Notes: generated from the sequence alone by a model not told the origin. A stretch of DNA of 64,000 bases from an uncultured bacterium (GCA_963718575.1 OY970358.1:258172-322171); one strand, 5' to 3'; positions 43,119 to 60,446 are shown, numbered from the stretch's first letter. Made by a program: numbers and translations.

Positions 43119-43173
43119 CGCCCCGTCGCTTGTTTTTAAAAAAAGATTAAGATAACATAAATCAACTAAAACC

Positions 43174-44169
43174 ATGTTGATCGGCAAAGCATCCCCGGAG
43201 GATATGAACCTCCATCCAATTCAATACCAGTGGGCATACGACCTCTACCAGCAGGCGGTGCGCAACACGTGGTTCCCGCACGAGATCGCGCTCAAGGAGG
43301 ATCTGTACGACTGGGAAAAGATGACGGACGACGAGCGTCACGCGGTGAAGTTCCTGATGGCATTCTTCAATCCGGGCGAGTTGATCGTCAATCGCTCGAT
43401 CGCGCTCGGCATCTATCCGTATTTAAAATCGCCGGAGTGCCATCTCTATCTTGCAAAGCAGATGTGGGAGGAAGCGAACCACTGCGTTGCTTTTGAATAT
43501 GTATTGGAAACATTCCCGCTCGACCGATCGAACGTTTTCAATCTTCACCTCGACACGCCGTCCATGAAGGCAAAGGAGGATTACATCAACAAGTACATGC
43601 GCCGCATGACGGAAGACACGCTCGACGTCACGACGCCCGACGGCAAGAAGGATTTCATCCGCAACCTCGTGGCGACGAACATCGTGATGGAAGGCATCTG
43701 GTTCTACAGCGGCTTCATGGTGGTGCTCTCGTTCCGCCAGCGCAACCAGCTCCGCAACTTCGGTTCGATGATCAACTGGGTGATCCGCGACGAGTCGCTC
43801 CATCTCAAGTTCGGCATGAACCTCATCCAGAATATTTTGGAAGAGAACGCAGAATTGTTGACGAAAGAATTTGCCGACGAGATCAAGAATATTGTCGTCG
43901 AAGGCGTGAACCTTGAGGTTGATTACAACCGCGATCTTTTCCCGCGCGGCATCCTCGGCTTGAACGCAGATTACGTGAATCAATACGTGCAATACGTCGC
44001 GGACCGCCGCCTCGAAGAACTCGGCATCGGCGCGCACTATGGCGCAAAGAACCCGGCCAAGTGGATGGCAGGCGCAACCGACGTACTTGAGCTCGTAAAC
44101 TTCTTTGAAGCGCAAAACACATCGTACGAAGTGGACGGCCACGCCGCTGACAAAAAGAAGGCAGAATAA
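43174..44169 (+). CDS. nrdB: Class Ia ribonucleotide reductase beta subunit.
   Basis: A ferritin-like fold with the di-iron ligands (EANHCVAFEY..., RDESLHLKFG). Confidence 0.85.
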   Translation: MLIGKASPEDMNLHPIQYQWAYDLYQQAVRNTWFPHEIALKEDLYDWEKMTDDERHAVKFLMAFFNPGELIVNRSIALGIYPYLKSPECHLYLAKQMWEEANHCVAFEYVLETFPLDRSNVFNLHLDTPSMKAKEDYINKYMRRMTEDTLDVTTPDGKKDFIRNLVATNIVMEGIWFYSGFMVVLSFRQRNQLRNFGSMINWVIRDESLHLKFGMNLIQNILEENAELLTKEFADEIKNIVVEGVNLEVDYNRDLFPRGILGLNADYVNQYVQYVADRRLEELGIGAHYGAKNPAKWMAGATDVLELVNFFEAQNTSYEVDGHAADKKKAE

Positions 44170-44291: not shown

Positions 44292-44927
44292 ATGAATTTG
44301 AAGACTGTTCTCGTCACCCTTTGCTGCGTCGCGGTCGCGCTCGGCCTCGTCACGTTCTACGTGGTGTTTTATAGCGGCGGCGGAACATATGTGGTGAGCT
44401 CGGCGCTCGGGCCCGATGCGGGGATTTTTGCGACGAGCACTCCCCCGCCGGCGACAGCGGACTCCACCCCGTCATCCACGCTTGCGCTCGCATCATCCTC
44501 CGCCAGTTCCACCACCTCATCGACACTGCCTTCAACACAGATCGGCGCGGCCCCCGTCGCGTGGACACAGGGCAATGAAACTCTTTCCGTCACCGATGCT
44601 ACGGTCTCCGGTTCCCAATTGACGCTTGGCGTGCAAGTGGCGATGGGTTCCGTCTCGGAATGCGTGCCGCTCAATATGCGGATGATCGCAGATGAGCAAG
44701 GCGATCTTTCCCCGCCCATCACGCCGCAATTCACCTTCCCCGACACCGGCACATGCAACGGTACGCCAGGCGAAACATACAGTGCGCAACCGATCGTCTT
44801 CACCCTTGATACTCCCGTCACGTTCCCCATCATCCTCACGACCGGCGGCACCGCGAATGTTTTATTCGAAGTCGTTCAGAACTCCGACGGGAGCTTGACC
44901 GTGCAGCTACCGCCAAACTCGGATTAA
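44292..44927 (+). CDS. Secreted Ser/Thr-rich hypothetical protein.
   Basis: A signal or transmembrane N-terminus, a TonB-independent low-complexity linker, and no known domain. Confidence 0.4.
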   Translation: MNLKTVLVTLCCVAVALGLVTFYVVFYSGGGTYVVSSALGPDAGIFATSTPPPATADSTPSSTLALASSSASSTTSSTLPSTQIGAAPVAWTQGNETLSVTDATVSGSQLTLGVQVAMGSVSECVPLNMRMIADEQGDLSPPITPQFTFPDTGTCNGTPGETYSAQPIVFTLDTPVTFPIILTTGGTANVLFEVVQNSDGSLTVQLPPNSD

Positions 44928-46521
44928 AAATAATCAAAGCGTGCACCATTGAAAATATTCCCCTGTCTGCTACAATAGTATGCGTATTCCGCGATAGCTC
45001 AATGGTAGAGCGGCGCCCTGTTAAGGCGATGGTTCCAGGTTCGAGTCCTGGTCGCGGAGCCAAGTTGGATGATAGTGCTAAATCGAGCACTGCATCGAAT
45101 GGTTTACGTAAGGAATACTTGAGTTTTCTGTCGGTTACCGATAGGTTCGATAGTACGAAATTGATAATTGCGTGTTTTTCGCTTACTTCCGAACCTTCAA
45201 AGATGATGCGGATGCGGCGGCATAGATTTATTACCGTAGATACGTGGATGTGGTACTCGTGATCTGCTTTCGTATGCTCGTCGAGTTCGAGATTGAGCCG
45301 GTACTGTCGATCCTTGAGATCTTGCAGCTTTTTGTCATACTCGTCTTTGGTAATACTCGTGCCGTCGAGGTAAAGATCGGTCAGCCGGTCGATCCGGCGC
45401 TGGGTTTGGTCAAACTCGGCCCGCACCCTCGTAAGCTCGCGGTTGCGGAACTCAATCTCGGCCTCGTTTGATTTGCGAAGCTCCTCGACCAGCCGTTCCT
45501 GCACGTCGCGGGATATGCCCTCGAAGGCCTTAAAGAGCTCGTAGATGGGCTCAAGAAGGATGCGCTCGGACACGTACACGCGCTTGCAGTTCCCTTTGCC
45601 GTTCGTGCAGGCATACGTGACATACTTTCCCTTTTTGAGCTCGGGCGTATAAAGGCAACCACATTTCGGGCAGCGGATGAGGCCCTTGAAAATACGATCG
45701 GCCGAAACCATCTTCGCTGGCATTTTATTCTTCATCAGCAGAATTGCTTGGCACTTTTCGAAAAGCTCGCGCGTAATGAGGTGTGGGTAACGATGGGCAA
45801 ACAGCATATCGTATTTTTTTGAATATGCCATGCCGTGATAGAAATGATCCTTGAGGATTGCCTCGATGTTGCTGCGCGAGAGCGGCTTACCATCCTTGCT
45901 ACGCAATCCGAGCTTGGTCATCTGCTGCCAAAGTGTCGTGATCGAATAATTGCCGCTCGCGTAGAGCTCAAAGAGGCGCACAATGAGATGCGCTCGCTCG
46001 GGATCGGGTTCGATGTCTTTTTTGCCATCTTCCCGTGTAACATTGACATATCCGATGATGGCTCTGCCGTTTACTTCTCCACTCCGGCGACGTTGTTCGT
46101 TCTTGCGCTTCACGTTATCGCCCAGCTGCAATACGTAGCTCCGCGCAAACATCACACCCATATCCCAGCGAATGAGGTCAGCGCTGTTCGAGTTTTTATT
46201 GATCACGAGGTTCTCTCGGTAAAAGTGGATCTCGAGTTTGCCCTGCTTTCGTAGTTCGTCCAAGACGACGGAGTCGCGGAAACTGCGCTGGAGCCGGTCG
46301 ATCGTATCTACGATGAGCGCGACGGGTTCTTTCGATTGCTCGATGTCGTGGATGACCTGCTGAAACCGCTTGCGATCTCCTCGCGTCGACGACTCTTCAA
46401 TCTCGTAGGTCTTCCATACCTCAAGCTGTTTGTTCTTGATGTAATCCCCGAGACGTGTCAGCTGGGCTTCGTTGGAGTCCTGTTTTTCATCTGATACCCG
46501 GGCGAGAATAATTGCTTTCAT
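44836..46521 (-). CDS. Large serine recombinase (integrase). The ORF reads through the tRNA-Asn gene, so the last roughly 75 codons are probably fusion into host sequence.
   Basis: An N-terminal resolvase domain (IILARVSDEKQD with the catalytic Ser, DTIDRLQRS), a recombinase domain, a zinc ribbon (CPKCGCLYTPE...YACTNGKGNC) and a coiled-coil. Confidence 0.8.
   Translation of the reverse strand: MKAIILARVSDEKQDSNEAQLTRLGDYIKNKQLEVWKTYEIEESSTRGDRKRFQQVIHDIEQSKEPVALIVDTIDRLQRSFRDSVVLDELRKQGKLEIHFYRENLVINKNSNSADLIRWDMGVMFARSYVLQLGDNVKRKNEQRRRSGEVNGRAIIGYVNVTREDGKKDIEPDPERAHLIVRLFELYASGNYSITTLWQQMTKLGLRSKDGKPLSRSNIEAILKDHFYHGMAYSKKYDMLFAHRYPHLITRELFEKCQAILLMKNKMPAKMVSADRIFKGLIRCPKCGCLYTPELKKGKYVTYACTNGKGNCKRVYVSERILLEPIYELFKAFEGISRDVQERLVEELRKSNEAEIEFRNRELTRVRAEFDQTQRRIDRLTDLYLDGTSITKDEYDKKLQDLKDRQYRLNLELDEHTKADHEYHIHVSTVINLCRRIRIIFEGSEVSEKHAIINFVLSNLSVTDRKLKYSLRKPFDAVLDLALSSNLAPRPGLEPGTIALTGRRSTIELSRNTHTIVADRGIFSMVHALIIFNPSLAVAARSSSRRSSERLRIKHSRCRRS
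44988..45062 (+). tRNA. tRNA-Asn (anticodon GTT).
   Basis: A 75-nt cloverleaf. The acceptor stem is tccgcga/tcgcgga and the D-arm is gctcaatggtagagc. The anticodon loop CUGUUAA resembles E. coli tRNA-Asn. The T-arm is ccagg-ttcgagt-cctgg, followed by the discriminator G and CCA. Confidence 0.8.
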
Positions 46522-46523
46522 GA

Positions 46524-46706
46524 TTACTTGGTCCTCGTTTTTTTAAGAAAGCGATCGAACTCGGCCTTTTCGACGCGAAACTCTTTTCCTATCTTGTGCG
46601 CCGCAAGCCGCTTCGCTTTTATATAGCGGTAAATCGTCATGATGTTCACGCGAAGCGCGGCGGCGAGTTCCTCTGCGGTATAGAACTGTTTGTGGTTTTT
46701 AGTCAT
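46524..46706 (-). CDS. Excisionase-family HTH DNA-binding protein, a possible recombination directionality factor.
   Basis: YTAEELAAALRVNIMTIYRYIKAKRLAAHKIGKEFRVEKAEFDRFL is a typical excisionase-type HTH. It lies 3 nt upstream of the recombinase. Confidence 0.6.
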   Translation of the reverse strand: MTKNHKQFYTAEELAAALRVNIMTIYRYIKAKRLAAHKIGKEFRVEKAEFDRFLKKTRTK

Positions 46707-46776
46707 GGTGTTGTTATTATCATACTTTACATTGGTTTACATAGCAAGCTGGCACTTTATGCTTGTTTTATTGCGC

Positions 46777-47991
46777 TCACGGCCCGCTTAAGGTGTTCCG
46801 AAGGTCTTTATTCGGCTTGTTCTTCGCTCGGTTCTGAATGCGAAATGGCTGGTATTGCACAATCGAGGACTTCACTTGATCGTACCAATCGCGAGGTTTG
46901 ATCGCTCCGAGATCTGCCGCAACACGTTTCAAATCTGCAACGAGACGATACCATGTGCGGCTGTTCATCTTGCGTCCGAAGGCACTGCGAAGCTCTCTCA
47001 TGCCCTTACCGTCACGGGCTGTGATAATAAGGCCCGTGAGATAAAGCGCGTGGTTCGGCTTGGTCTTCTTGCGTGAGAGGATTACCTGCCGGAGCAAATC
47101 CTTTGGAGTAAGCGCGTGAGCAAAGAGCAGCACGCTATTCCCCTCAATCATCGTATTCCAGTAGTGCGTCATAACCTTCACGCTCCGCTCTTCAGAAAAA
47201 ACATCACGGAACGTCGGGTTTTGCCCAAGACCAAGAGTGTCGAACACTGCGTTCATTTTTTTCTTCTGACTCAACCTCACTTCGAAGCGAACTATCTCTT
47301 TTCGCTTTTCGAGCGAAGGAAAGAGTGCAAGCTGTTTTTTAGTTTGATCGCGGTCGACTGCTTTCCGGCCCCGCACGAGATCGGCTATTTTGTCGTAAAC
47401 GACGAACGCATGCGCGAATGTGTGGGCGTGTAAGCTCTGTCCGTCATTTTGATACCGCTCTCGCGCGAGATCAAAACGCTTATTGAGGTCGATTTTTCCC
47501 AACTCGCTAATGACGTACTGGGCCGTGTAGCCATTTCGCAAATCAATGTTTCGCGAGTAGTGAACGGCGGTCACGGTTGCATTGGAGAGGTCACGCACGG
47601 AAACGTAAGCAGACATTCGATCCATACGATCCTTGAGTGCCGCAACGACGTCATTGAATTGCGATGCCTCGAGCTCGTCGAGATTATTTCCGTAGATAAG
47701 TTTTGGTGCGGAAAACTCGATGCGGATTGTCGATCCCTCAAACCGGCGGCGGTAGCCGGTCAAGCGCGGAAAATACAATCCAGTTTTTTCATCCGCTGCC
47801 GTAGCGTTGTGAACATACTTGTCGTATGCCCCCGTACGCGCCTGAAGATCCCATGTCTTACCACCATTGGCTACCGGGCCCAAAATAACTTTTTCTCGCG
47901 GGATTGAAAGAATGATGGTGTCAATCATGGTTTTGGGGGTTTTGGGACGCGACATTTTTATCATCATTTTGGGCGTTAAGCCGTCGATCAA
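46777..47991 (-). CDS. Putative HUH-endonuclease-type replication initiator or relaxase.
   Basis: A YxxxY motif (NGYTAQYVISELGK) followed by an HUH-like LHAHTFAHAF motif. The overall layout is that of a rolling-circle Rep or Mob protein. The true start is probably internal, about 47928-47967. Confidence 0.4.
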   Translation of the reverse strand: MIDGLTPKMMIKMSRPKTPKTMIDTIILSIPREKVILGPVANGGKTWDLQARTGAYDKYVHNATAADEKTGLYFPRLTGYRRRFEGSTIRIEFSAPKLIYGNNLDELEASQFNDVVAALKDRMDRMSAYVSVRDLSNATVTAVHYSRNIDLRNGYTAQYVISELGKIDLNKRFDLARERYQNDGQSLHAHTFAHAFVVYDKIADLVRGRKAVDRDQTKKQLALFPSLEKRKEIVRFEVRLSQKKKMNAVFDTLGLGQNPTFRDVFSEERSVKVMTHYWNTMIEGNSVLLFAHALTPKDLLRQVILSRKKTKPNHALYLTGLIITARDGKGMRELRSAFGRKMNSRTWYRLVADLKRVAADLGAIKPRDWYDQVKSSIVQYQPFRIQNRAKNKPNKDLRNTLSGP

Positions 47992-48142
47992 TTTTTAGTA
48001 AGAGATCGAAAAGGCCCACGATGTTACGGCGCGACTCGGGATCATCAAAAACGGCCCCGCTATTGATCTCTGCCGACGAGGTATCTGGCTTTTTTATTGA
48101 GTTGTGTTTATTTTGACCAGACATAAAAATAACCCGATGCAA
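47921..48142 (-). CDS. Small hypothetical protein of 73 aa.
   Basis: ORF only. Confidence 0.25.
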   Translation of the reverse strand: MHRVIFMSGQNKHNSIKKPDTSSAEINSGAVFDDPESRRNIVGLFDLLLKIDRRLNAQNDDKNVASQNPQNHD

Positions 48143-48179
48143 TCAGGTTATTCGATGACTGGTTTAAGACCGCTTACTC

Positions 48180-49439
48180 CTATCTTAAATACTTTGGGTT
48201 GATGCGAACTGATTGAGCTGTCGTCAGTAATAAATCCTGTAGGCCAGTATCCCGAATGATTTTCTGCTTAACTTGATAGGCAGCGTTGTAGAACTTTTTA
48301 TCGTCAAACCTTGCGGCATAGTCGTATTTTTCAGCGATTGCGGAATAAAACCACTCCTGCCCAATCTGTGCAGGATCTTCAAAAATTATTCGCAGGAGAT
48401 GATACTGGTCGCTGTTTTTTCGGATCTTCACGATCTTATCGCTTACCGAAAGAACTGCTTTTACATGGTCAAAGCTTAAGTTTGCCTTAAATGGCTCCGT
48501 GCTCTCATTCGTCTGGGTCGAGCGAATGAGGCCATTCGGCGTTATCGGCAGTTTATTAAACTTCACTTTCCAGGACCCCTCATCCGACCAGCGCATTTGA
48601 ATTGCTCCGTTCAGCTGAAGGTATTTGAGTATTTTCACGGCCTCAAACTCTCTCTCGGTTAAGATAGTGAAAGGTATGTTGATGGTGTCGCCAATAAGGG
48701 TTTGTTTGCTGATATAGCGGTAAAAACTTTCGATCTGCTTCGTAAAATACTGACGCTTCTCTTGGTATAGCGACTGCTCGGAAACAAACTCATCTTTTTC
48801 GAACTTTTCGAGGAAGGAAGCTATTTCTTTTTCGATCGCACGGATACCTTTTTCGTCATACGCGACCCTTATCAAAATATGGCCCGGCAGATGCACGACG
48901 ATGGGTTGCATCGCTCGAAAGTACCCGTGCTCATCGTTAGGAAAGAAAACGCTTCTATCGCCAAAACGCAGTATCTCTTTGTATTTTTCGGGCTGCTTCT
49001 CTGCTTCAGCTTGCCGTCGACCTTGCTCTTGCCTTTCCAAGAAGCAAACGTGTTCAACGGCTTCGGTAAAATAAGGGGCTTCCTCTTTGGCGCGGTCTTG
49101 CCCGATTTTAGCGACTTCGATGAGTAGATCCCTTAATGCCGTACTGGTGTCGTCAATCCCGACCTCCAAGATCTTACCCAGCTTCAGATCTTCAAATAAA
49201 AACGTGGCCTGTTCCAAGACCATGTCGGGTACGGAATAAAAATCATTGGTATCGTAGACCTCGTTTTTGATGTCATCAATGTCCCAGTAATTGCCCTTAA
49301 AGAACTCCCCGAAATTGAGTTGTGTTTTCCCTTCCTTGTAGGCCTCAAGAAAAATGAGGATAAACAAAAGATCCAAGTCCTTATTGATGTAATCGAAGGG
49401 GGTATGATACGGCCCGCTTTCGTCTTCAATGTAGGTCAT
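48180..49439 (-). CDS. Hypothetical protein of 419 aa in low-GC cargo, divergent from the HEPN gene.
   Basis: No recognisable motifs. Confidence 0.4.
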   Translation of the reverse strand: MTYIEDESGPYHTPFDYINKDLDLLFILIFLEAYKEGKTQLNFGEFFKGNYWDIDDIKNEVYDTNDFYSVPDMVLEQATFLFEDLKLGKILEVGIDDTSTALRDLLIEVAKIGQDRAKEEAPYFTEAVEHVCFLERQEQGRRQAEAEKQPEKYKEILRFGDRSVFFPNDEHGYFRAMQPIVVHLPGHILIRVAYDEKGIRAIEKEIASFLEKFEKDEFVSEQSLYQEKRQYFTKQIESFYRYISKQTLIGDTINIPFTILTEREFEAVKILKYLQLNGAIQMRWSDEGSWKVKFNKLPITPNGLIRSTQTNESTEPFKANLSFDHVKAVLSVSDKIVKIRKNSDQYHLLRIIFEDPAQIGQEWFYSAIAEKYDYAARFDDKKFYNAAYQVKQKIIRDTGLQDLLLTTAQSVRINPKYLR

Positions 49440-49498
49440 TGTTTTATGGCTGCCAATTTTTCTTTACTTTAGTTTACATTTATCGGAAACTAAGAACA

Positions 49499-50200
49499 AT
49501 GCTCAACCTCAAGAAGCTGGAGGATATAGCATATCTCGCATTCAAAAACGCCCTTCGTTTGCACAAAGACGCTATAACTTTATATAAGGCCCGGAGCTAT
49601 CCCTCGGCTTTTTACCTGTCCGTTTTGGCGCAGGAGGAAATAGGCAAAATGCACATCGTTAGCGACTTCGTTTTTTATACTCGCACAGGCGAGCCACGGA
49701 AAAATATAATCGGCATAGAAAAGTTTGAGGAGGAATGGCTCGGCGTGCTTTATAAACATCCTCGCAAACAATATGCGTTCATTCGGAATAGCCCGCTTCA
49801 CGATGGCCTATTATTTCGCAACGGCAAGCTGGCCGTTCGGAAAATAGCGCAAGAAGCATCGGATGGAACATTTGAACTGAAGAAGCAAGAAGCCGTCTAT
49901 GTTGGGCTAAAAAGAAGCAGAGGCAAAATCGACTCGAAGGGCAAAATCAGCCATCCTTTCAAATTAAGCAAGAAAACAGCTCAAGATCAGATAACGAAAA
50001 TAAACGACTATTTTTTGGTAATGGGCATGGGCATCAAGTGCGGTTCGTATTCACTGGATGATCCGTCCATAGAAAACGAACTTAAAAGCAAGCGTTTTTT
50101 AGCAGCTTTATTTTCTCGTTGGCCCCATCAAAGTGGCTCTGCTATCCGACAAGTGCGAAGCATGCAAAAATTGTTGCGCGGAAAGGTTATACCTGTGTAA
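49499..50200 (+). CDS. HEPN-domain protein, AbiV-like; a candidate abortive-infection or RNase effector.
   Basis: An N-terminal helical HEPN-like region (AYLAFKNALRLHKDAITLYKARSYPSAFYLSVLAQEEIGKMH) and an Rx4H motif (FIRNSPLHDG). Confidence 0.45.
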   Translation: MLNLKKLEDIAYLAFKNALRLHKDAITLYKARSYPSAFYLSVLAQEEIGKMHIVSDFVFYTRTGEPRKNIIGIEKFEEEWLGVLYKHPRKQYAFIRNSPLHDGLLFRNGKLAVRKIAQEASDGTFELKKQEAVYVGLKRSRGKIDSKGKISHPFKLSKKTAQDQITKINDYFLVMGMGIKCGSYSLDDPSIENELKSKRFLAALFSRWPHQSGSAIRQVRSMQKLLRGKVIPV

Positions 50201-50296
50201 GCGAGACAAAAAGCAAAGAGTTTTAATTCCAAGACCCGAAAATAGAAGAATGCCCGCTGGTTTCCCAACGGGCATTAAAAGTTGTGACGTTCCGCG

Positions 50297-50872
50297 TCAC
50301 TCGGTACTGGGCGGATCGAGCAGGAGGTCAAGGAGCGACTTCCAGTCCTTTGCACGAACCGTGTCGGATCTGTCTTTGTACTGATCATATTCCAACGGTT
50401 CAGCGAGGTTGGAAGGATCGTACCGACAGACCAGATTTCGGTCGTTGCAGAGGATGACCTTCGCGCCCGCGACCATGAACGGCGTCGGCGAACCTTCGTG
50501 CTTATTGAAAGCATCGAAGCACGCAGAAGCCGGATGGTCGTGGTGGCTGCTGTCGGTCAGAACGGCGACATACTTCGCGCCCTTCTGTGCCGCAAGCAGC
50601 GCAAGGAAAATCCCAACTGGCATTTCCTTGCCGACATGCTCGTATCCCTCGGGCCCTTGGCTCTCATTACTCGCAGGCATCAAGAGGTCAACCAGCACTG
50701 CATCGAACTGCCCAGCATTCTCGTACTCCCACGGCTTCGCCCGGTTTCTTGTACCCCGGATCGCTGCGAGGCCGTCGTCGTAGCTTTGCGCTGTGGTCAG
50801 TTCGTGGTCGCCTAATTGCGCTTTCGCTGCTGCAAGATGAGTCGCCTTGTCGTCGATTACCAAAATCTTCAT
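50297..50872 (-). CDS. Receiver (CheY-like)-fold protein, divergent and stand-alone.
   Basis: MKILVIDD (beta1 with an acidic pair), FDAVLVDLLMP (phospho-acceptor Asp position), VAVLTDS (Thr) and AGAKV (Lys) lie at the expected positions. Confidence 0.4.
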   Translation of the reverse strand: MKILVIDDKATHLAAAKAQLGDHELTTAQSYDDGLAAIRGTRNRAKPWEYENAGQFDAVLVDLLMPASNESQGPEGYEHVGKEMPVGIFLALLAAQKGAKYVAVLTDSSHHDHPASACFDAFNKHEGSPTPFMVAGAKVILCNDRNLVCRYDPSNLAEPLEYDQYKDRSDTVRAKDWKSLLDLLLDPPSTE

Positions 50873-51008
50873 GTTATTCTCCTTTTTGCCTTTTTACCTG
50901 CTGCGCCTTTGGCTACAGCGCATACCCTGCAATTTATGTAGGTTATACGCTGTATCCAAGGGCTCGATAAGGCCAATTTAAGGTTCTGAACGTATTATAC
51001 CATATCTA

Positions 51009-51021
51009 TTGACATTGTCAA
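51009..51021. promoter_or_regulatory. Perfect palindrome TTGACA-T-TGTCAA, doubling as a -35 element and possible operator upstream of the 51096 operon.
   Basis: ttgacattgtcaa is seen directly, about 75 nt upstream of the ATG. Confidence 0.45.
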
Positions 51022-51095
51022 GCACCTATGCTATCGTTTAGACAGCTAATCCCACAAGGGTTTTGGCAGGTAAATAAGGCAGAAAGGAGTCCGAT

Positions 51096-51587
51096 ATGGA
51101 GACAAAAGGACGCGTGAAGGGATATGTTCTCGGGCAGGATTATGCCGAGGGCATTCCTACATGGAAAGTCCGCGTGACCGATGAGTCATCTCCTTTTGTG
51201 GGCGACAAGCTATTTGTAGCTTCCGTTCATGATGAGATAGCACTCGCAAACGGTCTTGAAGTCACCTTCTTGATCGGCGCTTTCACTGGACGTGGCAAAG
51301 AGACCTATCACAAGGCGCTCGATGTCGCACCGCCAGTGGTCATTCCAAAATGCGACTTCTGTGATCACATCGCAGAGATCGGCATTGAAGTGAGCGGCTA
51401 TAACGAGCGCGGGCAAGTCGATGAAGGCGGGGCCACAGAATACATTCGCTGCTGTATTGCGGATGTTTTCCAAGGAGTACGACAGGGACAAACATCGCGG
51501 ATCGTAAGCGGAAAAACAAAACATTTCCGCTGCACGAACTTCAGTGCCAAGGAACAAGGATGGCGCAAGATGAACTCGATCTACTAA
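51096..51587 (+). CDS. Hypothetical protein of 163 aa with CxxC and CC motifs.
   Basis: ORF with an AGGAG ribosome-binding site and no known domain. Confidence 0.4.
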   Translation: METKGRVKGYVLGQDYAEGIPTWKVRVTDESSPFVGDKLFVASVHDEIALANGLEVTFLIGAFTGRGKETYHKALDVAPPVVIPKCDFCDHIAEIGIEVSGYNERGQVDEGGATEYIRCCIADVFQGVRQGQTSRIVSGKTKHFRCTNFSAKEQGWRKMNSIY

Positions 51588-51623
51588 CCCCTAACAGGCA
51601 TCACGGCACAAAGGAGAATTGCC

Positions 51624-52067
51624 ATGCTGGTTATCAATACGAAAAAAGGCGCGGTTGTCTCTGTTGAAGAAAAGAACATGGGAACCGCACGTAACGTCAT
51701 TGAGCGGGTCGATCGTATGTTCGACATGATGTTCGGATTTGGGGAGCTCAAACACCCCGCTTCCGAGAGTGCTACGCTGGTAAAAGAGGCAGCGAAGGAA
51801 GTGGTCAAGATCCATCACGATCGCCACTTACAGGCAGAGCAAGCGATCAAGGATTATCGCAGTCGTTTCTTCTTGGTTCGCTGGTTCATCAAGACGCCCC
51901 AGCCCTACGCCGACGTGACCGAAGAGCAAGTGCTCAACGCATATCGGGAGAAGTTCAACAAGTTCTATCGGTGGCTGGTCGACAAGAACCAGAACTCCAA
52001 CTTCTACTTCGGCCAGATCGAAGAAGAAATCACTGCATGCGCCGAGTTGATAGAGGCGCTGAAGTAA
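51624..52067 (+). CDS. Hypothetical protein of 147 aa.
   Basis: ORF with an AGGAG ribosome-binding site and no known domain. Confidence 0.4.
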   Translation: MLVINTKKGAVVSVEEKNMGTARNVIERVDRMFDMMFGFGELKHPASESATLVKEAAKEVVKIHHDRHLQAEQAIKDYRSRFFLVRWFIKTPQPYADVTEEQVLNAYREKFNKFYRWLVDKNQNSNFYFGQIEEEITACAELIEALK

Positions 52068-52094
52068 CGAACACCAAATCCAGCCAACGCTGGT

Positions 52095-52125
52095 GGCCCG
52101 CTCTTTCGAGAGTGGGCCTTTTTCA
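52095..52125 (+). terminator. Intrinsic terminator (ggcccgcuc-uuuc-gagagugggcc followed by UUUUU).
   Basis: Seen directly. Confidence 0.6.
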
Positions 52126-52285
52126 TATTTAATGCCGCGCAATGAGATTGTGCCTTTGTAAATAACGCAGGCGTTTTTATTTTCATTTCATCTTTAGTTT
52201 TTATATCTATTGACGACTATGCCATTTATATGGTATAAGTCGCACAGCTGTCTTGATAGTAGTAATCAGAAAGTGAGGTGGGCAA

Positions 52286-52597
52286 ATGCCTCGAGACGGA
52301 ACAAAAAACCGGGTCGAGGAATTACAGCATGAAGCTCAAGGAGCTATCGGCTACCCCGAACTGGTTGCACTCGCATCGGATGTCAGCATGACTCCGAATC
52401 GGGCGCAAAGCGTTGCAGCATCCCGGTGGCCACGCCGTCAGGCACGGGCCACATACTTCCTTGCCAAGCTCCGAAGGGATTTCCCTGAAGAGTTTGCGCA
52501 ACTGGCAAGTATAACCATAACCCCTACAGAGCACGCTCGGCCCCAGCGGTCAGAGCACGCACGAGGAGATAATCATGGTGACGACAAGCGTTCATGA
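52286..52597 (+). CDS. Hypothetical protein of 103 aa. A TTGACG-18-TATAAG promoter lies upstream.
   Basis: ORF with a GTGAGGTGG ribosome-binding site. It overlaps the next gene by 23 nt. Confidence 0.35.
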   Translation: MPRDGTKNRVEELQHEAQGAIGYPELVALASDVSMTPNRAQSVAASRWPRRQARATYFLAKLRRDFPEEFAQLASITITPTEHARPQRSEHARGDNHGDDKRS

Positions 52598-53873
52598 AAA
52601 AAGACGTCAACTGGCCTTCGTCGAAGATCCGACAGAACGCCTTCGGCTGATGCTGGTAAACAACCTGAAGGATGATGCCCTCGAGAACTTGAACAAGATG
52701 ATTGAGGCAGGCATCTACTTCCAAGACGCGAGCCGCGGTAGTGGCATCAAGCAGATCGATGACGGCAAGCGTTCGAAAGAGCAAGAAGAGCCGATCGTCT
52801 GCTCACTTGACCACAAAGCGTGCTTTACCCTTTCGGGTATCGCAAAGTTCTTTGGCTGGAAAAAGAAGCAGATGGCGGATTTCGTCATCCGGCTTCTCGA
52901 AAAAGCCATTACGATCCATCCGTGGAATATGCGGAAGGAGATTGAAAGCTGGGCTGGTTCATGGGAAACGTGGGCGACGTATCGGGCGTACAAGTTGTAT
53001 GTCCCTGCGAAGCATCCGATCCGTCCGGCGGTTGAACGCTGGCTGCTCGAAGCATGGTTTCAGGAAGCGTACTTCTTTAGCTACCTTGGTGACGAATGGG
53101 ATCAGGAGTGGCTCGGACAGATATTTGAGGAGAGGAGTCTCGGCTTACACCATCCCTACCACCAAGAAGCCACCGTCAACCACTGGTCAGCACGAGCCGA
53201 TGCACTCGCAAAAAAGTTTCGCGAACTCGGCGCAACCAAGGAGGAGACGAAAGAAGTCTTCTATCGCTGGCTCGAACACTGGGGGCCGGGCAGTCTCAAC
53301 CCCGATTTTGTTCTTGCCGTCGCCAACATGGAGATTTTTTCATGGAGGGACGAACGCAGAGCGAAGGCGATCCAACCGCGGCTCAAAAAGGCGCTCGAAT
53401 ACGTCTTCGAGGGAAGCAATCTCTATTCTCCTTACATCGTTATCGGCCTTCATTCGGCTGGTATGAAAGTGGAGGGTGAAGGGAGGAAGCTTTACTGCGA
53501 TCGCCTTGCTTCTGTACTTGCCGAAGGAAAGATCGGCTACGCACACACCGTCAACGAACTCATCGGCAAGGCATTACTCGATAGAGACAAGCCCGAGTTA
53601 AGGGAGGTCGTAGCGCAGGCCTTCGATGGCGCGGTGCAGAAGGGCGAGTTCGGCATTGCTGCCGCCCTTGTCCAACAGTTTGGCGAAGATGCCTGCTTCA
53701 ATGCAGATATTCTCCAAGCCCGTGCCAAGAAGGAAGCAAAGAAGTGGAAGTCGGCCCATGCTCAACTGGTAGCAGAACGTCGGACGCAAATCCGTGAAGC
53801 GATTGGGATTGCGCAAGCAGCCCAGAAGCCCATCAGGTTCGACTACACTGTCCCCTTTCTGACGCAGGACTAA
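52575..53873 (+). CDS. Hypothetical protein of 432 aa, alpha-helical and Trp-rich.
   Basis: ORF with no known domain. Confidence 0.4.
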   Translation: MVTTSVHEKRRQLAFVEDPTERLRLMLVNNLKDDALENLNKMIEAGIYFQDASRGSGIKQIDDGKRSKEQEEPIVCSLDHKACFTLSGIAKFFGWKKKQMADFVIRLLEKAITIHPWNMRKEIESWAGSWETWATYRAYKLYVPAKHPIRPAVERWLLEAWFQEAYFFSYLGDEWDQEWLGQIFEERSLGLHHPYHQEATVNHWSARADALAKKFRELGATKEETKEVFYRWLEHWGPGSLNPDFVLAVANMEIFSWRDERRAKAIQPRLKKALEYVFEGSNLYSPYIVIGLHSAGMKVEGEGRKLYCDRLASVLAEGKIGYAHTVNELIGKALLDRDKPELREVVAQAFDGAVQKGEFGIAAALVQQFGEDACFNADILQARAKKEAKKWKSAHAQLVAERRTQIREAIGIAQAAQKPIRFDYTVPFLTQD

Positions 53874-53883
53874 ACAACAAACA

Positions 53884-53920
53884 AGACCCGGGATGCGAAA
53901 GCACCCGGGTCAATTTTTTT
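53884..53920 (+). terminator. Intrinsic terminator (gacccggg-atgcgaaagca-cccgggtc followed by AAUUUUUUU).
   Basis: Seen directly. Confidence 0.65.
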
Positions 53921-54128
53921 ATACTATCACTTTCGGCGCAATCTCGAGAATGCCGGAGTATCGCAACTCCTTCTCAAAATCCGTCCAGTTTATCGCTCGA
54001 AAAGCATCCAAAGGCAGTGTCGTTACTTGTCCATTCTGCGGAGCAGTCAACATTTAGTATCGGACAGACCGAGATCCTTAATTGTAAGAGGGTTCAAATT
54101 CCTGTATATTCAATGAAACGCCGAGCAA

Positions 54129-54542
54129 ATGAAAAAACGCATTTCCAAATACACCCCACGAGGGTATAGCCTTTCCGTGCGCCGTTCGCTGACCGGCAAA
54201 GGGCTTTTCACCAAAGAAGATATCCCGAGCGGCGTCTGCATCATCGAATACACCGGCCGCGTCCTTAGCAAAAAAGACGCGGAGAATAGTGACGGCAAAT
54301 ATCTCTTTGATGTGAGCGCAGGGAAAACGATCGACGGGAATATCCCCTCCAATCGGGCGCGGTACATCAATCACTCCTGCAGGCCGAACTGCGAAGCCAT
54401 CGGCCCGGACGGTAAGGTATTTATCTTTTCCCGTAAACGTATCAAAGCCGGGACCGAGCTCACGTATGACTATGGAAAGGAATATTTCGACGGGTTCATC
54501 AAGCCGAAGGGGTGTCGGTGCGAGAAACATCGGGGAAAATAG
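54129..54542 (+). CDS. Minimal SET-domain protein, a putative lysine methyltransferase.
   Basis: RYINHSCRPNCE (the NHSCxPN signature), ELTYDYG, and a post-SET-like CRCEKH. Confidence 0.7.
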   Translation: MKKRISKYTPRGYSLSVRRSLTGKGLFTKEDIPSGVCIIEYTGRVLSKKDAENSDGKYLFDVSAGKTIDGNIPSNRARYINHSCRPNCEAIGPDGKVFIFSRKRIKAGTELTYDYGKEYFDGFIKPKGCRCEKHRGK

Positions 54543-54650
54543 AGCGCATGATATTAATCTCTTTTATAGGATAAGAACTTCGCCACCCTTTGCATTCATC
54601 ACCCCCAGTGCTACAGTGGAATAAGAGTTTTTGATTTAGGAAGGGAACAT

Positions 54651-55094
54651 ATGAAACGTTTTTTACGCATCGCACGTAGCGGTGTTCTTGCGGCCATCTG
54701 CTACTTCGCCTCCGGAACTGTAATCCTCGGTCTGGAAAAAATAGAGAAGAAGGCATGTCTTCCTGCTGAACTTGCAGGAAAAACCCATAATGATTATCCG
54801 CTGTATGCCCGCTCGATACCACGCGAAATAACTTCGTGGTGCATGGCGGGGCCACCGATCATGATCATCGGAAATCAGAAAGCGTTTCGTCCGGGGACCA
54901 AAGATCCACTCCCTATCCCATCACCCGAAGAACGACAAATAAGTGTCGTCCAGGTCCGGAAGAATTGGCCATTGGTACTTCCCTATCTCGCGATGACCAC
55001 CAAGCATAAATGGCATCTGCGAATAGGAGCCCGATGGAACCCTACGGAGGGATACTACACCTTTCCAAGCATTACGATAAAACAGTTACAGTAA
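54651..55094 (+). CDS. Secreted hypothetical protein of 147 aa.
   Basis: A signal-peptide-like N-terminus and no known domain. Confidence 0.35.
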   Translation: MKRFLRIARSGVLAAICYFASGTVILGLEKIEKKACLPAELAGKTHNDYPLYARSIPREITSWCMAGPPIMIIGNQKAFRPGTKDPLPIPSPEERQISVVQVRKNWPLVLPYLAMTTKHKWHLRIGARWNPTEGYYTFPSITIKQLQ

Positions 55095-55143
55095 GGGGCA
55101 ACGCTACCAGCGTTGCCCCTTTTTTACTGCGCTACGCCATTGA

Positions 55144-55554
55144 CTAGCGCTCTTCGGCATTCAAAATTCTTTGCAGATCGACGATGCTGATCGGTTTTGT
55201 GAGATGATGATCGAATCCGGCGGTGTAAGCCTTTTGCTTGTCTTCATCCTGACCGTATCCCGTGAGGGCGATCAACGTCCCCGAAAACATCAGCTTGCCC
55301 CGGATGGTGTCGGCGGTTTCATATCCATCCATATCCGGCAGGCCGATGTCGAGGATGATACTGTCGGGTTTTTGCCGCGGGATCTTCTGCACCGCCTGGG
55401 CTCCGGTGTATGCGTAATCAACGGAGCACCCCATGAGCGATAAAAGTTTTCCGACGCCATGCGCCGCCGCAGTATTGTCGTCGACGGCAAGCACGCTCCC
55501 GACCTCCACAAACTTGACGATTTTCATTCCTCCGTTGAACGTAGTCGGCCGCAT
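55144..55554 (-). CDS. Stand-alone response-regulator receiver domain (CheY-like).
   Basis: VLAVDDN, ILDIGLPDMDGYE, LTGYGQ and HHLTKP are the canonical REC motifs. Confidence 0.7.
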   Translation of the reverse strand: MRPTTFNGGMKIVKFVEVGSVLAVDDNTAAAHGVGKLLSLMGCSVDYAYTGAQAVQKIPRQKPDSIILDIGLPDMDGYETADTIRGKLMFSGTLIALTGYGQDEDKQKAYTAGFDHHLTKPISIVDLQRILNAEER

Positions 55555-55627
55555 ACCCGCTCCGCTCCAAGCCTTTTTTAAGGGATTCCGCCAGTTTTAT
55601 CTGGTCTTCAATAATAAGTACTCTCAT
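55538..55627 (-). pseudogene. A 5' fragment (about 30 codons) of an OmpR-type response-regulator gene. It is out of frame with the downstream receiver gene.
   Basis: MRVLIIEDQIKLAESLKKGLERSGYAADYV, which spans beta1-alpha1-beta2 of a receiver. It is then followed by nonsense in the same frame. Confidence 0.4.
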
Positions 55628-55684
55628 GATATCTCTGTATTGGTATTACACCATAGAGAATATGAAAATATCATGAACATCGTT

Positions 55685-55948
55685 TCACCGATGCACACAC
55701 CCGGCCCAGCAACACGGCCGACGCATTCCTTCTTTTAGCTCCGAGCACACCCTGAGGACATGCTCCCTTCTTGTTTCCGCCTTCACGACGGAGATGGTCC
55801 AGCAGATCCATTCGTTGCGCGCGAGCGGAGTGATATCCTCCCATTTCGCCCGCGCCGCCGGGTCGGAAAGGAGCGCCTTTCGCAGGTCTGCAGGCATTGT
55901 ATGCACCACGCCGCCGGAAAGTTTCTTTTGAGGTGACGCAGAATTCAT
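55685..55948 (-). CDS. YdeI/OmpD-associated family (DUF1905-like) protein.
   Basis: MPADLRKALLSDPAARAKWEDITPLARNEWICWTISVVKAETRREHVLRVCSELKEG matches the family pattern. Confidence 0.5.
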   Translation of the reverse strand: MNSASPQKKLSGGVVHTMPADLRKALLSDPAARAKWEDITPLARNEWICWTISVVKAETRREHVLRVCSELKEGMRRPCCWAGCVHR

Positions 55949-55959
55949 TCGCGTATATA

Positions 55960-56442
55960 TTATTTTTTAGCGGACAGAAAATTAGTTAACTTTTTCAACT
56001 GCTGAGTAAAACCGGCTTCCATGCCCTGAACGGCCATCCCTGCCTTAGGGCCTGTCCTATAGATGACCGCCCTTACGGTTACTTTAGTTTTTCCCTGCTC
56101 TTCGGCAAAGGCAACTTCCGTGATTTGGTCGATGGTGGTCTCTTCTTTGTCGCCCTCAACCCACGCCTGCACGCTATAAGAAAGCCGTGAGTCCGGCTCA
56201 ACGACGGTGAACGTTCCCAGCATCGGCCACTGCGTGCCCTTATATGGACCCATCGCCTCCCCCGCTTCCATGACTATATAAATTTTACCGCCGACCCGCA
56301 GGTCGATTTCACATTCAGGGATGGTGACGTTATCAGGTCCCCACCACTGCTTTATCATTGCCGGATCCGTCCACGCGTTCCACACCAGTTCGCGCGGAGC
56401 GTCGTACACTCTCTCAATGGTCACTTCTTTAATGCTTTCCAT
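55960..56442 (-). CDS. SRPBCC-superfamily protein (AHSA1 / activator of Hsp90 ATPase homologue-like).
   Basis: ERVYDAPRELVWNAWTDPAMIKQWWGP. Confidence 0.65.
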   Translation of the reverse strand: MESIKEVTIERVYDAPRELVWNAWTDPAMIKQWWGPDNVTIPECEIDLRVGGKIYIVMEAGEAMGPYKGTQWPMLGTFTVVEPDSRLSYSVQAWVEGDKEETTIDQITEVAFAEEQGKTKVTVRAVIYRTGPKAGMAVQGMEAGFTQQLKKLTNFLSAKK

Positions 56443-56761
56443 ATTTTTTTGATTTATTTTTTTCTGTCTTTAAAACCGCATCCAGCCTGTCAAGCCGCCG
56501 CTGCCAAAGTTCCGTCGTATGCCTTGCCCACCGCTCAAGTTCATTCATTGCGCCTGCATCGATCGTATAGATCCTCTGCCGCGACCTTTTTTCCATGTGC
56601 ACAAGCCCTGCCTCGCGCAACACCTTGAGGTGCTGGGATATCGCCGGTGGACTGGAATTGAACTTGCCGGATATATCCGTCGCCGACAGCTCGCCATTTT
56701 CGGCCAGCAACTCTATGATGCTGCGCCGGGTCGGCTCTGCGACTGCGGTGAATATATCCAT
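56429..56761 (-). CDS. ArsR/SmtB-family transcriptional regulator.
   Basis: VAEPTRRSIIELLAENGELSATDISGKFNSSPPAISQHLKVLREAGLV. It forms a classic arsR-AHSA1 operon pair. Confidence 0.8.
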   Translation of the reverse strand: MDIFTAVAEPTRRSIIELLAENGELSATDISGKFNSSPPAISQHLKVLREAGLVHMEKRSRQRIYTIDAGAMNELERWARHTTELWQRRLDRLDAVLKTEKNKSKKYGKH

Positions 56762-56890
56762 AGTTCAAAGATACGCCGCTTCATTAATTAAGTCAATACT
56801 TAATTAATGAAGCATCCGTCCATTGACATGGCCGCGCTCTATCTCCTATTGTATCAGAAGAACAAAGCCGCTTAGGCGGGAGGGGGTCGC

Positions 56891-57331
56891 ATGAAAAAAT
56901 TGCTGAAGAGCTTCGTTTTCTCGTGTATGGTCGTTGGTTTGATACCGTGCATTCCTCGCGATCTGCAGGGACAATCGCCGGAAAAACAAAAAGTTGGGCA
57001 AAAAACCGAAAGAGACTACGCAAACGAGGCGTGGATGGATGGCTATAAACATCTTTACAAGGACGAAGCGAGTCTCTGTCGTGAAGGCCTCATCCACTTC
57101 CCCGGCGATCCCGATCTTCGCGAGCTGCTTGCGGAAGGATTGAGCAACCTCGGCCAGTACGAGGAGGCTGAAATATTGTTCAAAGGGATTCTCAATTCCG
57201 AAAAGGGGGCGGATAAAGCTATTTACGTATGGGCACGTCCGCCGTATGTGGCTATGCTGAGAAAACAAAACAGGAACGCCGAGGCCGATGCGGTTGCACA
57301 GAACTCCGAAGATGTCGCCAGAAATCATTAA
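56891..57331 (+). CDS. Secreted TPR-like hypothetical protein.
   Basis: A signal peptide, and a helical repeat region (LAEGLSNLGQYEEAEILFKGIL). Confidence 0.4.
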   Translation: MKKLLKSFVFSCMVVGLIPCIPRDLQGQSPEKQKVGQKTERDYANEAWMDGYKHLYKDEASLCREGLIHFPGDPDLRELLAEGLSNLGQYEEAEILFKGILNSEKGADKAIYVWARPPYVAMLRKQNRNAEADAVAQNSEDVARNH

Positions 57332-57417
57332 GGTTCTTCCCATGAATCACCGTGGCGCGATCGATTTCAACGATCGCGCCTTTTTATTGGCAGAGTTTCT
57401 TTGTTACACTTAAGTGA

Positions 57418-57912
57418 ATGGCGAAAGGCAAAAGTAATTTCTTCGAGGTAAACTCGCACAAGGCGTCGGTACGGGTGACCGTGAATTCCATCATGATGGG
57501 CGGCCTGTTCCTTATCCTCAGCTTGATCTGGACGGGCGGATCCGGAAAATTTAATGTTTTCATCATAAGCCAATTGATCCTGGCAGTACCGCTCTTATAT
57601 GTCTCCGCGCTGGCGTATTTGAAGATCGGGTATTCAGAGAAAGTTATCATGTGGGATACGCTTGGATGGTTTACGAGCAGTATCGGCGGCATTCTTATTT
57701 TAAATGCGATCGGCTTGATGACCGTTCCGATCGACGCTACCGTAACCTTCCTCTATTTCTTTCTCCTCATAGCGCTCATGTTGATATACTCGCTCATCAA
57801 CATTATCTATAACCCGCATGAAACGGCCGAAAAGCTGTTTAAATTTTTCTTCTTTTTGGTCGTGGTGGCAGCAGGAGGATTGTTGCCGTTATTGCTCGGG
57901 CTGGTACATTGA
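57418..57912 (+). CDS. Integral membrane hypothetical protein.
   Basis: Four to five transmembrane helices and no known domain. Confidence 0.4.
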   Translation: MAKGKSNFFEVNSHKASVRVTVNSIMMGGLFLILSLIWTGGSGKFNVFIISQLILAVPLLYVSALAYLKIGYSEKVIMWDTLGWFTSSIGGILILNAIGLMTVPIDATVTFLYFFLLIALMLIYSLINIIYNPHETAEKLFKFFFFLVVVAAGGLLPLLLGLVH

Positions 57913-57978
57913 TAAAGCTTGGACAATTTTCATAATCTGGAGTAGAATATAAAAATTAACTAAACATTATATATACCC

Positions 57979-60445: not shown

Positions 60446-60446
60446 C

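Follow-up and report, generated by a model that had tools for sequence, protein, structure and literature searches.

The nearest described counterparts of the element reported here are the integrative and mobilisable elements (IMEs) of Firmicutes that carry MobT/Rep_trans relaxases, such as IME_Sag2603_tRNAlys; related proteins, for instance NicK of ICEBs1 and Orf20 of Tn916, serve both as replication initiators and as relaxases (PMC5704250). IMEs that target tRNA genes use tyrosine integrases, and serine-recombinase IMEs insert within protein genes and disrupt them (PMC5704250). We analysed a stretch of 64,000 nt from an uncultured bacterium (GCA_963718575.1 OY970358.1:258172-322171), referred to as the window, in which coordinates count from the first letter. 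Comparisons with related contigs make it probable that the segment from ~45057 to ~54042 (8,984 bp) is a site-specific integrative element in the chromosome of a Paceibacteria-like member of the Patescibacteria. The element is a precisely bounded variant of integrative (mobilisable) elements and represents a large, apparently undescribed Patescibacteria family; literature searches found no published description of it.

Like the Firmicutes IMEs, the element is small, combines an integration/excision module with an initiator or relaxase of the Rep_trans type, lacks mating-pore genes, carries variable cargo and targets a tRNA 3' end. In contrast to these IMEs, a large serine recombinase here targets tRNA 3' ends and restores them, the Rep protein scores below the Pfam Rep_trans threshold, the host belongs to the Patescibacteria, and the backbone includes an additional OmpR-type winged-helix protein. 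The host affinity is indicated by the best 80 NrdB loci, almost all of which come from metagenome-assembled genomes (MAGs) labelled Paceibacterota, Parcubacteria or Saccharibacteria. One NCBI contig of 881,652 bp also carries exact copies of the cargo proteins. The GC content is 44-51% inside the element (45-54 kb) versus 54-59% in the upstream host genes (NrdAB region), and the backbones of relatives lie at tRNA genes (L091, L093, L094 and the composite element E2, described below), in agreement with an earlier reading of the window, made from the sequence alone, that had taken the region to be mobile rather than core DNA.

The two ends of the element are marked by copies of GCGGAGC located 8,984 bp apart (45054-45060 and 54038-54044). 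On the left, contigs from other samples (L002 and L003) are 99.9% identical to the window between 52552 and the tRNA-Asn gene, where they diverge, the identity holding only rightwards from 45056 (GGAGCCAAGTTGG...). L100, with a recombinase 96.5% identical to that of the window, has a third, unrelated left flank and breaks at the same base; the three left junctions (tRNA, E2 and L100) thus part at one and the same base, immediately left of 45056. On the right, the window and L091, a related element at another tRNA-Asn gene, have exactly one common block outside the backbone (53934-54044, 84.7% identity, E 4e-29), which terminates at ...TTCTGCGGAGC, with conservation ending exactly at GCGGAGC. 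L100 carries the same distal block (86.7%) with the same end point. An empty-site homologue is found in L012, a 913-kb contig of a related species, where the tRNA-Asn gene is directly followed by ...GCGGAGCA CTCAGTAAA AGTATCGGACAGACCGAGA, and the tRNA-Asn gene is likewise unoccupied in L013.

The reconstructed attB (...TCGCGGA joined to GCAGTCAAC) is without an encoded CCA, as are L012 and L013. The predicted junction sequences are ...GTTACTTGTCCATTCTGCGGAGCCAAGTTGGATGATAG... for attP and ...GAGTCCTGGTCGCGGAGCAGTCAACATTTAGTATCGG... for attB. As these alignments show, the last bases of tRNA-Asn (discriminator G and CCA, from ~45059) are supplied by the element, and the tRNA stays intact. Crossover takes place inside GCGGAGC, and the central GA (45057-58) is proposed as the crossover dinucleotide on the strength of half-site symmetry, GTCC being found at -13..-10 in each of three arms (tRNA, P and E2). 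The earlier sequence-only reading had called this a compact integrative element at a tRNA-Asn 3' end, had guessed a right end within 53880-54130 and had suggested comparing it with an empty-site homologue; the ends lie where it had looked for them, and the L012 tRNA-Asn is directly followed by the 19-mer found at 54056-54074.

A search of 44.7-56 kb for direct and inverted repeats detected no long att repeat, which is what a serine recombinase would lead one to expect. Nothing above background came from a half-site scoring scan or from pattern searches in the rest of the window for the tRNA 3' end and the L002 left arm. Synteny with L012 and L013 (tblastx) is lost after the tRNA, and only the 19-nt flank match survives. 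The L002/L003 junction was considered as an excised attP and rejected, its arm differing from the P arm common to the window, L091 and L100; L097 and L090 identify it as a tandem junction with a second element. As a separate observation, the anticodon loop of the tRNA-Asn in the empty-site genome (L012 11766-11972) is split by some 207 nt of inserted sequence that matches Rfam Intron_gpI over its full length, below threshold (22.5 bits vs 50). The insert is probably a group I intron within a tRNA of the Patescibacteria; ARAGORN makes no call for this tRNA gene. Two further assemblies break inside the backbone or the tRNA, L001 (a 276-kb contig) at window position 48112 and L010 at ~45038. These breaks, from this and a sister population, are consistent with strain heterogeneity or repeated backbones at the locus.

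The recombinase gene of the element spans the left junction. All three domains of the integrated 561-aa form score above their cut-offs (PF00239 52.9, PF07508 51.6 and PF13408 32.8 bits) and together span residues 1-328; the N-terminal catalytic serine motif, MKAIILARVSDEKQ, was read from the open reading frame (ORF), and we take it to be of the canonical RVS type. As previously noted from the sequence, the ORF runs straight through tRNA-Asn(GTT), to which it is antisense (44988-45062). Residues 1-486 are encoded by the element, and the last 75 by antisense tRNA and host flank. When the two ends of the element are joined in silico, a recombinase ORF of 528 aa is obtained, the last 40 residues of which are QNGQVTTLPLDAFRAINWTDFEKELRYSGILEIAPKVIV. 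The reconstruction shows that the predicted attP lies inside the recombinase ORF and that the tail would be in frame only in the excised attP form. Short central identity and hybrid attL and attR sites, as expected of serine recombination, are evident from the 7-nt GCGGAGC at both ends, the empty-site homologue and the conserved P arm.

The tails of L091 and L100 encode nearly the same peptide despite ~15% nucleotide divergence. Relative to L091, 12/17 substitutions fall at third codon positions and the codon changes are 13 synonymous to 2 non-synonymous; the corresponding figures for L100 are 11/15 and 11 to 3. The five other reading frames of the block are much less conserved. From the codon pattern, the 40-codon tail is therefore judged to be coding and under purifying selection, translated as recombinase only in the circular form. 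Within the block, the innermost ~48 nt are identical in the window, L091 and L100 and probably also serve as a P-arm binding site. In the tandem array described below, the recombinase takes up the homologous tail of the second element (...VDWTSIGRELEPF).

The ends of the protein were compared across the recombinase family. In the cluster formed at 90% identity, proteins of 500, 511, 512, 524, 526, 532 and 561 aa differ only after residue ~486, and the seven lengths therefore represent several different junctions. A search of 1.84 billion representatives returned 12,835 matches, 806 of them below 1e-30, and the tails were compared in the best 150. In near-full-length matches among these 150, homology stops at query residues ~437-509, mostly 476-490, a point reached by 134 proteins. 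The peptide [DGE]SN, usually preceded by W, is contained in 72 of the 134 tails (54%); [DGE]SN is the antisense reading of GGTTCGAATCC in the tRNA T-loop, and W (TGG) is the antisense of CCA. A further 33 of the 134 tails are short, and most of those listed stop a few codons past a W at the anti-CCA position. The remaining 29 are long alternative tails, many of which feature a phi-R-T motif like that of the reconstructed tail. A recombinase ORF that crosses attP is thus a property of the family, at least 54% of the 134 representatives showing the tRNA-antisense signature. The tail switch would make the enzyme differ between the integrated and the excised states.

The arrangement resembles that of the archaeal SSV-type ("suicidal") integrases, in which attP lies inside the integrase ORF, integration at a tRNA gene splits the gene, and the two states give different products (PMC7253208, PMC8371274). 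SSV-type integrases, however, are tyrosine recombinases of Archaea that are cut into two pieces described as inactive (PMC7253208, PMC8371274), whereas the enzyme described here is a serine recombinase of Bacteria from which just the last 40 codons are detached, the recognised domains and the rest of the protein up to residue 486 remaining intact. The likeness is a functional analogy, not membership of that group. In domain order, the enzyme follows the phiC31, Bxb1, A118 and TndX/Tn4451 integrases, with Resolvase, Recombinase and zinc ribbon domains preceding a long C-terminal region (conserved end at ~486 here). Other features in common with the large serine integrases of phages and of integrative and conjugative elements (ICEs) comprise a short att core identity and a small accessory protein encoded nearby. 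The 3' ends of tRNA genes are not usual targets of phiC31, Bxb1, A118 or TndX/Tn4451, and we know of no integrase ORF among them that crosses attP. Nor, to our knowledge, has a directionality factor of the HTH_17 type been established for the large serine integrases of phages or ICEs.

Immediately upstream of the recombinase lies the gene of an HTH_17 protein, found at the same place in L091-L094, L097 and L100. The protein, recognised in the sequence-only reading as an excisionase-type HTH, is likely a directionality factor or a regulator. The next large gene of the backbone is a 404-aa ORF with a conserved start at M22, which gives a protein of 383 aa. From the sequence, it had been called a rolling-circle Rep or relaxase with HUH and YxxxY motifs. 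The general assignment stands, but the motifs are not conserved in 28 homologues and the HUH assignment was rejected: HAH of HAHTFAH aligns with YAY, YLY or TAF, no His is invariant in the segment, and the position of the first Y in YTAQY can be Y, F or H. The protein has instead a Rep_trans fold, the closest structural matches being the plasmid replication initiators RepSTK1 and RepDE. The residues invariant among the 28 homologues include Y199-D200-K201 and R235/E237/R239, and the Y199-D-K and R235-x-E237-x-R239 patterns resemble the IYNK / RVEIE region of pT181 RepC.

Profile searches place recombinase and HEPN domains above their cut-offs, but the match of Rep to Rep_trans remains below (14.1 vs 29.6 bits). 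Rep_trans is matched by 8/28 homologues (best E 1.4e-3), and Rep matches phrog_702, "replication protein". By its modelled structure, not by sequence threshold, the protein is a Rep_trans-fold rolling-circle initiator or MOBT-like protein. The Rep homologue profile found no match among PDB sequences. There are more than 557 homologues; the few with a source name come from Patescibacteria-group MAGs, and all the named ones are called hypothetical.

In relatives, the order of the backbone is 419-aa-type protein, small ORF, Rep, small ORF, HTH_17, an optional cargo slot, recombinase and tRNA. In the 419-aa protein, for which 73 homologues were found, the N-terminal ~320 aa contain no recognisable domain, and the family profile has no match among PDB sequences. 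A motif upstream of its gene, TGTAAACTAAAGTAAAG, is conserved across elements; its 13-nt core is identical in L091 and L092, whose Reps are only 57-88% identical to that of the window. The pattern TGTAAAC-N4-GTAAAG is a GTAAA direct repeat with a 10-nt period that matches twice in the window (0.05 expected), the second copy lying upstream of the HTH_17 gene. Domains of the OmpR type are known to bind direct repeats spaced by one helical turn. The motif is therefore regarded as a candidate operator for the winged helix, or part of an origin, and the 419-aa protein may regulate the backbone operon or mark the origin.

Related elements occur at several sites. The Rep/HTH_17 backbone lies at tRNA-Asn in L091, L093 and the composite E2 (L090 and L097) and at tRNA-Gln in L094, and is present without a tRNA at the junction in L092 and L100; in L036, a related recombinase, the only gene compared there, adjoins tRNA-Ser. 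L091 is close in its recombinase (94% identity) and Rep (88%) and has different cargo. L090 possesses the same host flank and tRNA-Asn (95% identity over 44529-45137) with a different family member, which has a 569-aa recombinase 50% identical to that of the window and a restriction-subunit gene next to it. L097 contains the element of the window (99.9%), its recombinase end joined to a 10-kb stretch of a second element that encodes SLFN_AlbA_2, a DnaA-type ATPase, a second Rep (29% identical), HARE-HTH, HTH_17 and Type III Mod and Res. As L090 and L097 share an overlap of 870 nt with 100% identity, the order in those populations is tRNA-Asn, E2 (~12.6 kb), the element of the window and host flank. 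In the window's own genome, the element lies directly at tRNA-Asn without E2. The same element, 99.9-100% identical, is found behind E2 in contigs from several samples; the tandem junction has no match in IMG/VR. Samples in which the population is present include ENA ERZ25039484 and ERZ27250077/198, JGI 3300041431, and Logan ERR11563597 and SRR13781587.

E2 itself (L097 3349-13453 and L090 533-3931), which occupies the same tRNA-Asn in other samples, carries Type III restriction-modification genes, an SLFN_AlbA_2/HATPase_c_4 protein, a short protein with a DnaA ATPase domain and HARE-HTH. In L100, a shorter serine recombinase (443 aa, 32% identical) lies downstream of the element beside an N6 methyltransferase of the Eco57I/TaqI_C type (18158-21265), which suggests arrays of recombinase-borne islands at the locus.

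Several points weigh against a mobile element of this kind. No excised circle and no same-species empty site were recovered, the attP junction was not found in IMG/VR viral contigs, and the exact 528-aa circular-form recombinase is absent from a collection of 15 billion proteins. The HTH_17 protein could be a plain regulator, and conservation of the innermost ~48 nt of the tail could reflect a DNA binding site instead of codons. Among the annotated ORFs of the window, no genes of a type IV secretion system (T4SS) are present. The element has an integration module, and neither mating-pore or T4SS genes nor a coupling protein or oriT-like feature is found among its annotated genes (Pfam, PADLOC and PHROGs scans); mobilisation by a helper secretion system is a conjecture, and the relaxase role of Rep is inferred.

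The same absence of conjugative functions favours an integrative plasmid, in which Rep would serve only for rolling-circle maintenance and the element would spread by natural transformation or vertical descent rather than by conjugative mobilisation. RepSTK1 and RepDE, the nearest structural matches of Rep, are plasmid initiators, and Patescibacteria are naturally competent (Wang et al. 2023, as cited in PMC12857230). Yet the same fold family serves both roles in ICEs and IMEs of Firmicutes (PMC5704250), and the family has a very wide distribution in a phylum that has no known relaxases at its T4SS loci (PMC12102498). We regard the plasmid explanation as possible, though rather doubtful. It is improbable that the segment is a decayed, immobile island inherited only vertically, with the recombinase a dead fusion running into junk. 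The integrated ORF does lack its native tail and ends in 75 non-native residues, and the missing circle and same-species empty site would suit such an island. However, the same element, at 99.9-100% identity, has two or more left-hand contexts in samples that differ, every backbone ORF is intact, purifying selection acts on the detached tail, and the fused state is found in over half of the family, which argues for a normal life-cycle stage rather than decay.

Table 1 Coordinates of the element, its backbone and cargo genes, and the adjoining host sequences in the window.
Feature	Coordinates	Strand	Basis or remark
Large serine recombinase ORF, integrated form, 561 aa	44836-46521	-	Pfam Resolvase/Recombinase/Zn_ribbon_recom; phrog_95 integrase 3e-65
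tRNA-Asn(GTT), integration target	44988-45062	+	ARAGORN; Rfam RF00005 68.8 bits
attL core GCGGAGC at tRNA-Asn 3' end	45054-45060	+	7-nt block identical to attR
HTH_17 (excisionase/MerR-type) protein, 60 aa	46524-46706	-	Pfam PF12728 8e-13
Second motif copy TGTAAAC-N4-GTAAAG, upstream of HTH_17 gene	46725-46741	-	Pattern match
Candidate Rep_trans-fold rolling-circle initiator or MOBT-like relaxase, 383 aa counted from M22	46777-47928	-	Fold and invariant residues
Short conserved backbone ORF, 67 aa in the gene calls of other contigs	47921-48124	-	57-69% identity in L091, L093, L100
419-aa backbone protein, first gene of backbone operon	48180-49439	-	C-terminal ~90 aa, OmpR/PhoB-type winged helix (Trans_reg_C-type fold)
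Motif TGTAAACTAAAGTAAAG upstream of 419-aa gene	49462-49478	-	Conserved across elements
AbiV-family HEPN protein, 233 aa, stand-alone cargo	49499-50200	+	Pfam, NCBIfam, PADLOC
191-aa cargo protein, weak receiver-like N-terminus	50297-50872	-	Response_reg E 1e-3, 19.7 bits vs cut-off 30.2
Divergent promoter pair	50994-51037		Palindrome TTGACATTGTCAA (51009-51021), two back-to-back -35 boxes
Cargo ORF, 163 aa	51096-51587	+	No family matches
Cargo ORF, 147 aa	51624-52067	+	No family matches
Conserved two-gene cassette, 103 aa (52286-52597) overlapping 432 aa (52575-53873)	52286-53873	+	Recurs in L095, L096
Detached 3' end of recombinase gene, 40 codons and stop (QNGQVTTLPLDAFRAINWTDFEKELRYSGILEIAPKVIV), also P arm	53916-54041	-	Block conserved with L091 (84.7%), L100 (86.7%)
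attR core GCGGAGC, right end of element	54038-54044	+	L091 and L100 homology stops here; flank beyond matches L012 empty site
Host B' flank	54045-54074	+	19-mer AGTATCGGACAGACCGAGA (54056-54074) directly 3' of tRNA-Asn in L012
SET-domain gene, outside element	54129-54542		SET domain match

Among the cargo genes (Table 1), only one product is confidently assigned. The AbiV-like HEPN protein, seen already in the sequence alone, matches PF18728 (HEPN_AbiV) with 63.8 bits (cut-off 27.1), TIGR04498 with 62.2 bits (cut-off 27) and PADLOC AbiV at 3.9e-8, and the Rx4H HEPN motif reads RNSPLH; by profile and motif, it is assigned to the AbiV family. Like lactococcal AbiV, it is encoded by a single gene, has the Rx4H motif and passes the Pfam and NCBIfam AbiV thresholds; unlike lactococcal AbiV, it is carried on a Patescibacteria integrative element and is known here by family assignment alone. 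In agreement with the sequence-only view of a mostly uncharacterised cargo, no library matches were obtained beyond AbiV and a weak receiver: Pfam, PADLOC, PHROGs and NCBIfam have no match for the 163-, 147-, 103- and 432-aa proteins, PADLOC has none beyond AbiV for any protein of the element, and the 191-, 163- and 432-aa proteins have no informative PDB sequence matches. The 191-aa ORF described as a stand-alone receiver-fold protein exists, although its receiver assignment is weak. Promoters at the palindrome TTGACATTGTCAA, which is perfect as reported, match the consensus at 12/12 positions on the - strand, facing the 191-aa gene, and at 10/12 on the + strand, facing the 163-aa gene.

Four ORFs of 163, 147, 103 and 432 aa, previously read as one operon, are all present but are probably not a single operon, since a terminator-like hairpin (52095-52118) follows the 147-aa ORF and only the 103/432-aa pair is conserved elsewhere. 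For the 432-aa protein, only 10 homologues were found, and no Walker A motif is seen in its sequence. The pair also recurs outside the element family, in L095 (3415-6959), where it directly follows a tyrosine integrase gene and precedes an Exo_endo_phos nuclease, and in L096 (9718-11338), in a chromosomal setting. There the small protein is 70% and the large one 42-58% identical, and the 163- and 147-aa genes do not recur beside the pair. The SET-domain gene that had been counted as the last of the cargo does encode a SET domain, but it lies outside the element since the right end is at 54038-54044.

The sequence-only reading had singled out the 419-aa and HEPN genes, and the four-gene operon, as candidates for a new defence or anti-defence module. 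The first pair is indeed divergent, with 59 bp between the starts (AbiV ATG at 49499), AbiV is a bona fide defence family, and the cargo of relatives is rich in restriction-type genes. Nevertheless, a novel two-gene defence module made up of the 419-aa protein and AbiV, with the four-gene block as a second module, is very improbable. The gene that diverges from the operon-heading 419-aa family (or C-terminally related) protein is different each time: AbiV in the window, DUF4268 in L093, a gene for a 188-aa protein in L094 and one for a 113-aa protein in L091. This makes AbiV a stand-alone cargo gene and not a partner. Moreover, the sole recognisable domain of the 419-aa protein is a DNA-binding winged helix, PADLOC matches AbiV only, and the four ORFs fall into two units. 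Cargo positions in relatives hold Type III restriction-modification, Mrr_cat/NA-iREase, bAvd and DUF4268 genes; defence-type cargo is common in the family, which is not evidence for the proteins without matches here, and no defence function is assigned beyond AbiV. The bAvd gene (L091 4089-4550), which codes for an accessory protein of diversity-generating retroelements, is among the cargo of L091.

That the element is instead an integrated filamentous (inovirus-like) or other single-stranded DNA prophage or satellite, with virion or morphogenesis proteins as the uncharacterised cargo, is highly improbable and was rejected: 3/28 Rep homologues do match Phage_CRI, the profile of gpII of filamentous phages (best E 1.4e-6), and the element is small with many small ORFs without assigned function, but PHROGs gave no match to virion proteins (coat, Zot/pI or others), neither morphogenesis nor coat genes were found, the 432-aa protein is without Walker A and its pair with the 103-aa protein is also found in chromosomal contexts without Rep, the region outside the backbone is wholly different between relatives, and homologues of Rep and the 419-aa protein were not found in IMG/VR.

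The host DNA around the element has features of its own. To the right, between attR and a C39-peptidase-like gene (58225-59523), the interval 54045-58200 holds genes for SET, a 147-aa ORF, a response regulator, OmdA, AHSA1, ArsR and a TPR protein. Its GC content is low (47-52%), it is without synteny to L012 or L013, and the equivalent interval of L100 contains AhpC, ADP-ribosylglycohydrolase and other genes. The interval looks like a second variable island beside the element; neither a recombinase nor an att remnant was detected there. Two ribonucleotide reductase systems are encoded in the window (2095-3777 and 40374-44169), one a class I NrdA/NrdB pair adjoining tRNA-Asn and the other an ORF with ATP-cone, RNR_Alpha and B12-dependent insertion domains. 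A complete haem-copper quinol-oxidase-type operon with a host-like GC content of 55-58% maps to 59546-63963 on the - strand and comprises COX2 with a COX_ARM motif, COX1, COX3, COX4_pro and a UbiA-family (CyoE-like) prenyltransferase. Patescibacteria are usually described as lacking respiratory chains (PMC12857230), and the operon is thus present in an apparent Patescibacteria genome against the usual picture of the phylum.

For the integrative element itself, the observations fit the following life cycle. The recombinase would join attP to the extreme 3' end of tRNA-Asn by crossover inside GCGGAGC, the element supplying a new discriminator-CCA end that keeps the tRNA intact. The integrated copy would express 486 native residues followed by 75 residues of antisense tRNA and flank, and the excised circle a 528-aa enzyme with the conserved 40-aa tail. 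This tail switch, along with HTH_17 as a putative directionality factor, could bias the balance between integration and excision, HTH_17 assisting the recombinase when the element is excised. After excision, Rep may nick an origin on the circle, and could act in rolling-circle maintenance, as a MOBT-type relaxase for a helper secretion system, or in both. The 419-aa winged helix probably binds the GTAAA repeats upstream of its own gene and of the HTH_17 gene, controlling the backbone operon. AbiV, the receiver-like protein, the 163/147-aa pair and the 103/432-aa cassette would be interchangeable cargo.

A survey of T4SS in Patescibacteria, in which nearly every locus was without a recognisable relaxase, found relaxases in only 103 genomes, just one of them MOBT, and noted that "very different relaxases ... 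yet to be found" would be required for conjugation (PMC12102498). We offer, quite tentatively and as a speculation on the doubtful side, that the Patescibacteria-wide Rep_trans-like proteins are these missing relaxases, that the tRNA islands are mobilised by MPF_FATA-like T4SS of the host chromosome and thereby spread defence cargo, and that the attP-straddling recombinase is a state switch, with a native tail made only from the circle and favouring integration and a tRNA-antisense tail made in the chromosome. A widespread, highly divergent Rep_trans family on integrative elements is, in any case, a concrete candidate for the missing relaxases. Few elements have been described in Patescibacteria, and the present one can be dissected: its ends are known to the base, an empty-site homologue and a tandem partner are at hand, and its relatives number in the hundreds. 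Its recombinase adds to the variety of serine integrases, as tRNA 3' ends are targeted, the tRNA is regenerated and the C-terminus of the enzyme itself is changed on integration, and it makes att sites predictable. The cargo positions of the family, which hold AbiV, Type III restriction-modification, Mrr-like and DUF4268 genes and the 103/432-aa cassette, are places in which to seek defence genes in these bacteria.

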